Positions 1-217 of a stretch of DNA of 217 nucleotides are shown here, piece after piece (position 1 is the stretch's first letter; the number at the start of each line of letters is the position of its first letter). Source of the stretch: Escherichia coli (GTDB lineage: Bacteria > Pseudomonadota > Gammaproteobacteria > Enterobacterales > Enterobacteriaceae); NCBI RefSeq assembly GCF_003334385.1, contig NZ_QOWN01000228.1; one strand, written 5' to 3'. The position numbers were made by a program, and so were the translations under genes. The notes beneath the pieces were generated by a model, which searched no databases, was not told where the DNA came from, and saw nothing but the letters and a program-made list of their open reading frames with translations.

Positions 1-217
1 CCGCGTGTAGAACACCAGGCGGTGCTGGCTGTCGTAGTGGTGGGTCCGCTCGTCGTGCATCCGTATCACCCCTTCCGGGATGCGGTCCGTCTTCTCCGCC
101 AGCCTGCCGTATTCATCGTGGCGGTAGACATAGTGCGCATCTTCCGCGATGCGGTTATCCGGCCATGCCGTGAGCGTGCTGTCCGGGTGCAGTTCCGGGT
201 CCGGCAGCCGGTTTCCT
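1..217 (-). CDS. rhs: Rhs-family / YD-repeat protein, conserved core region (internal fragment, truncated at both window edges)
   Basis: Seen in sequence: minus-strand frame with codons at + 216..1 is open for all 72 codons and translates to [72 protein letters not shown]. The other two minus frames carry stops (TAA at + 155-157, TGA at + 68-70). About 85% of codons end in G/C (61/72). Established knowledge: YD-repeat-like motifs ([19 protein letters not shown]) and overall similarity to enterobacterial Rhs core sequence as recalled. Family-level symbol only; the paralogue (rhsA/B/C/D etc.) cannot be assigned from this fragment. Confidence 0.88.

Follow-up and report, generated by a model that had tools for sequence, protein, structure and literature searches.

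The closest described relatives of the locus studied here are the Rhs proteins of Escherichia coli K-12 and the T6SS Rhs proteins for which structures have been solved. Rhs genes have been described as a GC-rich core followed by an AT-rich tip, and Rhs cores, which are long and near-identical repeats, are known substrates for recombination (PMC2935791). In Tse5 of Pseudomonas aeruginosa (8cp6), a T6SS Rhs cocoon, DxxGR is described as the turn of each hairpin, in which the Gly gives torsional freedom, while the Tyr faces the cavity (PMC10684867). The window, that is, the whole 217-nt stretch of E. coli DNA that was analysed, codes for part of such a shell. A sequence-only reading of it had pointed to a His in the place of the canonical Gly of one YDxxGRL motif and had proposed this residue as a marker for telling this rhs copy from its paralogues. 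With high confidence, we regard the window instead as encoding a T6SS-type Rhs shell hairpin with a fixed and uninformative His, in which the copy is marked by the loss, most likely through slippage, of one CACTAC hexamer, a loss that is probably neutral.

Minus-strand frame 2 is open over the entire window and gives a 72-aa translation. In a megablast search of 5,426 complete E. coli genomes, 100% matches to the window were found only in ETEC1749, ETEC4085 and rl0044, all from pig, and all three lie inside a gene annotated as 'RHS element core protein'; in ETEC1749, this CDS is WP_151309019.1 (1408 aa; 5239..9465 of the extracted locus L001). Within the YD-repeat shell, the window belongs to the C-terminal third; some 260 residues separate it from PIRYTDPLGL (residues 1246-1255), the PxxxxDPxGL motif that closes the core and precedes a 153-aa tip. 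Scanning of residues 301-1408 gave 13 Pfam RHS_repeat (PF05593) matches, of which 11 had E <= 0.001, together with a match to the RHS core domain PF03527 at residues 1152-1187 (E 1.1e-12); a PAAR-like motif at the N-terminus was spotted by eye only. Among solved T6SS Rhs proteins, phmmer matched Tse5 (E 1e-116) and RhsA of P. protegens (E 4e-85). GC makes up 63.6% of the core, against 52% of the flanking housekeeping genes and 38.8% of the tip taken with the downstream region, in agreement with the described core and tip layout. Already annotated, the gene belongs to the T6SS-linked Rhs family of enterobacteria; its nearest references are K-12 RhsD and RhsE.

In ETEC1749, the gene has a second Rhs gene, ISEc1, IS66 and ISAs1 as neighbours and lies on the yafV-ivy-fadE side of the chromosome; in the source genome, it is the upstream side of the gene that holds the other Rhs gene plus IS elements. 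Along L001 1..9465, the two Rhs core genes stand in tandem, with an ISEc1 transposase and 'dsORF-h1' between them and IS66 and ISAs1 downstream. A near-identical gene of strain 720632 (WP_114143336.1) follows hcp and vgrG and adjoins tssB and tssC, which amounts to T6SS linkage. The C-terminal tip (residues 1256-1408, L001 9004..9462) has a weak match to Pfam YkuD, an L,D-transpeptidase catalytic domain (E 0.0017), and NCBIfam has no family for the tip or for the small protein encoded downstream; the tip may be a cell-wall-targeting toxin domain. A putative immunity gene downstream of the Rhs gene (L001 9443..9834) is present as two ORFs in ETEC1749 and as one 130-aa ORF in 720632, the former being split through one G lost from a poly-G run (G8 to G7), a difference that could be either a real frameshift or a homopolymer assembly error. 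On the plus strand, frame 0 is open through the window and for 218 codons (L001 7879..8532); an antisense gene there was rejected, as such an open frame is usual for coding DNA of 64% GC and nothing else supports it.

Compared with its described relatives, the window gene belongs to the same family and carries the same repeat unit as K-12 RhsD and RhsE, with an identical YDSQHRL and 90.5% identity over the window peptide, and the Rhs protein of 720632 also has an identical YDSQHRL at 97.3% identity over the same peptide. The layout of a GC-rich core, a PxxxxDPxGL core end and an AT-rich tip is common to all of these. Unlike RhsD, RhsE and the 720632 protein, however, the window is without one His-Tyr pair (CACTAC) that all of them have, and it differs from K-12 RhsD and RhsE also in its chromosomal site and its C-terminal tip. 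K-12 RhsA, RhsB and RhsC share the unit and the His at about 80% identity over the window peptide, while their hexamer pair is imperfect (CGGTAC CATTAC). Among the more distant systems, Tse5 has the same fold, and its equivalent hairpin, YDGAQRLVHLTR, is also without a turn Gly; it differs from the window in having Gln for His and another toxin, its sequence is distant, and it is without an HY hexamer repeat. The Rhs protein of Salmonella bongori (8qjb/8qjc/8qjd) is T6SS-linked and enterobacterial as well, and its aligned WDARSQL also lacks the Gly, but Ser occupies the position, and identity to our model is no more than about 23%.

The features of the window on which the following paragraphs draw are as given below, with all positions counted on the plus strand.

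1..216, minus strand: Rhs core coding segment, residues 922-993 of WP_151309019.1, from the translation and a 100% match to the annotated CDS in three ETEC genomes.
1..18, minus strand: first part of the second strand in unit 2 (LVFYTR...), a strand that runs on past the window, predicted by the model.
16..45, minus strand: the flagged peptide, covering the last part of strand one in YD hairpin unit 2, its whole turn and the opening residue of strand two, from the translation and the model.
19..33, minus strand: five-residue turn DSQHR, the counterpart of the canonical DxxGR, from the secondary structure of the model, the role of the turn being as given for Tse5 in PMC10684867.
22..24, minus strand (GTG on the plus strand): codon CAC of His986 at the fourth turn position, canonically Gly; His in 187 of 196 homologues.
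34..39, minus strand: single CACTAC hexamer (His-Tyr), the site of a 6-base contraction; two tandem copies in most E. coli alleles and three in one genome.
52..84, minus strand: inter-hairpin loop of 11 residues (966-976), from the DSSP string and a pLDDT block of about 68.
85..132, minus strand: canonical YD hairpin unit 1, with strand YVYRH, turn DEYGR (Gly) and strand LAEKTD, from the model and a weak RHS_repeat match.

The His at the Gly position of YDxxGRL, claimed for positions 16..45, is indeed encoded there, by a CAC on the minus strand at 22..24 within the annotated CDS, which makes the segment genuine coding sequence and no chance occurrence of the motif. The flagged peptide corresponds to residues 979-988 of WP_151309019.1 and keeps the YDxxGRL frame (Y982, D983, R987 and L988), with adjacent units at HDEYGRL (residue 954, 28 residues before) and YDPLGRR (residue 1007, 25 after). 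Pfam RHS_repeat leaves this unit (residues 977-995) uncovered both in the 72-aa peptide and in the long scan, and the sole RHS_repeat match of the window peptide is a weak one to unit 1 (E 0.93). Because a profile match is absent, the status of the unit as a YD repeat rests on motif spacing, on alignment to solved structures, in which it pairs with YDGAQRL of Tse5 and WDARSQL of S. bongori Rhs, and on the predicted model.

The shell (residues 290-1256) was modelled with AlphaFold from a 91-sequence alignment (mean pLDDT 86.3, pTM 0.80), and the predicted structure has a closed beta-spiral cocoon fold. Foldseek matched the model to Tse5 (8cp6; TM 0.80, E 3e-74, 32% identity) and to RhsA (7q97; TM 0.77), with teneurins and TcB-TcC further down the list. 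In the model, unit 2 is composed of strand ERTHHY (977-982), turn DSQHR (983-987) and strand LVFYTRIQ (988-995), with a local pLDDT of about 86 and the same geometry as the canonical unit 1 just before it. The turn is a five-residue DxxxR turn like 41 others in the model. At their fourth residue, 36 of these 42 turns have Gly, two have His, two have Asp, and one each has Pro and Arg, so that a non-Gly turn is in the minority yet not rare in this protein. The other modelled His-for-Gly turn is DRLHR at residues 831-835 (TRDRLHRET). The loop 966-976 is unusually long, and its residues MH versus TD separate the window background from the K-12 RhsD/E type. The claim that the segment is a YD-repeat unit of an Rhs core is thus upheld by the model and the Tse5 alignment, and the segment is predicted to be a structurally ordinary YD-type hairpin of the Rhs shell with a conserved non-Gly turn.

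The conservation of the turn His reaches far beyond this gene copy. YDSQHRL recurs in the paralogue that lies about 7 kb upstream of the gene in this genome, K-12 RhsA, RhsB, RhsC, RhsD and RhsE all carry the turn His, and YD[SN]xHRL is found in 117 of 117 informative protein clusters from E. coli, Shigella, Salmonella and E. albertii. A wider set of 196 aligned homologues, drawn from 1.84 billion cluster representatives and reaching down to about 30% identity, has His at the aligned position in 187 cases and Gly in none. Sorted by identity to the query, His is found in 18 of 18 homologues at >=90% and in 129 of 129 at 70-90%, with no other residue in either band, then in 18 of 20 at 50-70% (Asp 1, Thr 1) and in 22 of 29 below 50% (Asn 5, Gln 1, Tyr 1). 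As noted above, Gln (Tse5) and Ser (S. bongori Rhs) stand at this position in the two relatives of solved structure. The whole unit xYDxxHRLV is well conserved. The codons used here for YDSQHRL recur at over 20,000 Rhs places across E. coli genomes.

An alignment against the same-genome paralogue and the Rhs cores had been proposed as a check, and it bore out a conserved His while speaking against a copy-specific one. The His is fixed and specific to this unit, and this Rhs clade has it from a distant ancestor; it is therefore uninformative on paralogue identity, and its suggested use as a marker falls away. Across the aligned homologues it appears as a deeply conserved, unit-specific residue, neither random repeat degeneracy nor a narrow lineage-specific variant, both of which had been considered. 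A sequencing error at the CAC codon, also raised earlier, is excluded because the codon is near-universal.

Inside the same flagged coordinates lies a copy-specific feature that the sequence-only reading overlooked: compared with the common allele, the window is one CACTAC hexamer (His-Tyr) short. Next-best genome matches to the window have 97.3% identity and span 223 bases against its 217, and 1,813 records have their best place in the 95-99% identity band. Base-by-base alignment with two loci, the paralogue next to it in its own genome and the locus of 720632, leaves six bases as the sole difference over the full window; both loci read CAC CAC TAC CAC TAC GAC (HHYHYD), where the window reads CAC CAC TAC GAC (HHYD). 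The window region of the two tandem Rhs cores of L001 is likewise identical save for the hexamer, and the extra two residues are also present in all K-12 Rhs proteins. In the source genome, the one-copy junction probe hit 1 place versus 4 places for the 217-nt query; the contraction is in just one of four copies, the two-copy state of two of the other paralogues being inferred from these probe counts. It is the hexamer contraction from HYHY to HY, not the His, that marks this gene copy in the source genome. When the searchable literature was queried for slipped-strand events in rhs cores, only Neisseria and Xanthomonas papers on other matters came up, and no description of this indel; the hexamer polymorphism itself is a routine kind of variation.

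The copy number of the hexamer was surveyed in 5,426 E. coli genomes with probes in which every 28-mer seed was forced across the allele-specific junction. On the perfect repeat (CACTAC CACTAC), one copy was found at 139 places in 68 genomes, two copies at 8,550 places in 3,571 genomes and three copies (HYHYHY) at 2 places in a single genome, LR-33. The imperfect repeat of RhsA/B/C, whose hexamers were read straight from K-12 DNA, was present in two copies at 13,347 places in 3,812 genomes, and probes for both possible contraction products of this background, used as a negative control, found 0 places in 0 genomes. These counts are of places, many of which are clonally inherited and so not independent; 139 against 0 therefore overstates the support for slippage, and no formal test was applied.

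One-copy alleles are present on at least two different backgrounds, with up to 4 one-copy places in some genomes. At the rhsE locus, one-copy (strain 203740), two-copy (K-12) and three-copy (LR-33) alleles stand between near-identical flanks, with at most one difference over 500 nt of left flank and none over 600 nt of right flank, the three-copy allele being located around 5001..5038 of L009 (NZ_AP027523.1). In an anchored comparison, the one-copy background of the window departs from the rhsE type upstream of the tract, 18 and 20 nt away, and downstream of it, 42 and 48 nt away, and a third one-copy background, that of strain elppa4, is set apart by its right flank. The one-copy allele makes up about 1.6% of places, and this low frequency fits rare events rather than to a hypermutable contingency locus. 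A phase-variable contingency locus was rejected also on the ground that the unit is 6 nt long and that the frame and the full-length CDS are kept in all three alleles, each of which lies in frame in a full-length annotated gene. In this respect, the hexamer, at 1 to 3 copies and always in frame, is unlike on/off phase-variation switches; it resembles the in-frame slippage polymorphisms of coding tandem repeats in bacteria, with a perfect 6-nt duplication, both contraction and expansion, and neither where the repeat is imperfect.

According to the mechanism that we favour, one of two tandem CACTAC hexamers just upstream of the YD codons would have been lost, changing HYHY to HY, most likely through replication slippage. 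Slippage fits because contraction and expansion are found on the same background, contraction recurs on others, and both are absent where the repeat is imperfect; as the mechanism, it is what we infer to be most likely. When the two-copy allele was modelled (pLDDT 85.9), the DSQHR turn and the second strand came out as in the one-copy model, while the first strand reads RTHHYHY after a 12-residue loop rather than ERTHHY after an 11-residue loop, so that the leading strand and the loop are each one residue longer. In the models, the loss of HY is thus accommodated where the first strand begins and in the long, lower-confidence loop before it, and, from the geometry of beta-strands, a change of two residues would be expected to keep the in/out alternation of the strand. 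Going by the two models, the loss is probably neutral or nearly so.

Other explanations were weighed against this reading, both for the His and for the hexamer. That the His is copy-specific degeneracy, usable as a paralogue marker, might seem natural in an isolated window, where it looks unusual beside the Gly majority at the turn position (36/42), but its presence in the neighbouring paralogue, in K-12 RhsA-E, in every informative cluster and in 187 of the 196 homologues renders this hardly credible. An artefact of sequencing or assembly, behind either the CAC codon or the 6-base deletion, might be suspected from the G8 to G7 homopolymer difference that the same assembly shows in the gene just downstream. 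It is nevertheless extremely improbable: the exact 217 nt recur in three separate assemblies, the one-copy junction is found in 65 further genomes, a whole hexamer is lost in frame, unlike a homopolymer error, and the CAC codon is near-universal. We consider it unlikely, too, that the conserved His is more than a tolerated turn residue and has a specific role, for example by contacting the C-terminal plug or the encapsulated toxin in a pH- or metal-sensitive manner. A role of this kind could account for the prevalence of His at an otherwise-Gly position, where the alternatives are Asn, Gln, Asp, Thr and Tyr and never Gly, and for the good conservation of the entire unit. Against it, Gln in Tse5 and Ser in S. 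bongori Rhs indicate that His is not required for the fold, and the available text of the Tse5 paper gives shell-turn residues no catalytic or gating role (PMC10684867). Less likely again would be the fuller proposal that the near-invariant His is functionally selected as a protonatable shell contact with the encapsulated toxin or the C-terminal plug that helps to trigger toxin release, with the copy number of the adjacent HY tuning that contact, a proposal drawn from conservation.

For the hexamer, a competitor of slippage is a one-copy tract of single origin that was spread between Rhs cores by short-patch recombination or gene conversion. The known recombination of these long, near-identical repeats (PMC2935791) and the occurrence of up to four one-copy places in one genome speak for it. 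The differences at 18 nt upstream and 42 nt downstream, however, would confine the converted tract to less than about 66 nt, conversion alone cannot make the three-copy allele found on an otherwise identical rhsE background, and no contraction occurs where the repeat is imperfect. Such a spread is accordingly judged improbable, and replication slippage on a perfect hexamer repeat stays the preferred account of the contraction.

The result mainly corrects the marker that had been proposed, and the finding is an ordinary one. What separates this Rhs copy from its paralogues is the hexamer copy number (one CACTAC, at plus-strand positions 34..39), which should be used for that purpose instead of the His. 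The conserved non-Gly turn adds a small structural footnote to the YDxxGRL consensus. The polymorphism of one, two and three hexanucleotide copies offers a probable natural example of slippage that depends on repeat perfection, and hexamer copy number could serve as a minor typing character for E. coli Rhs alleles.
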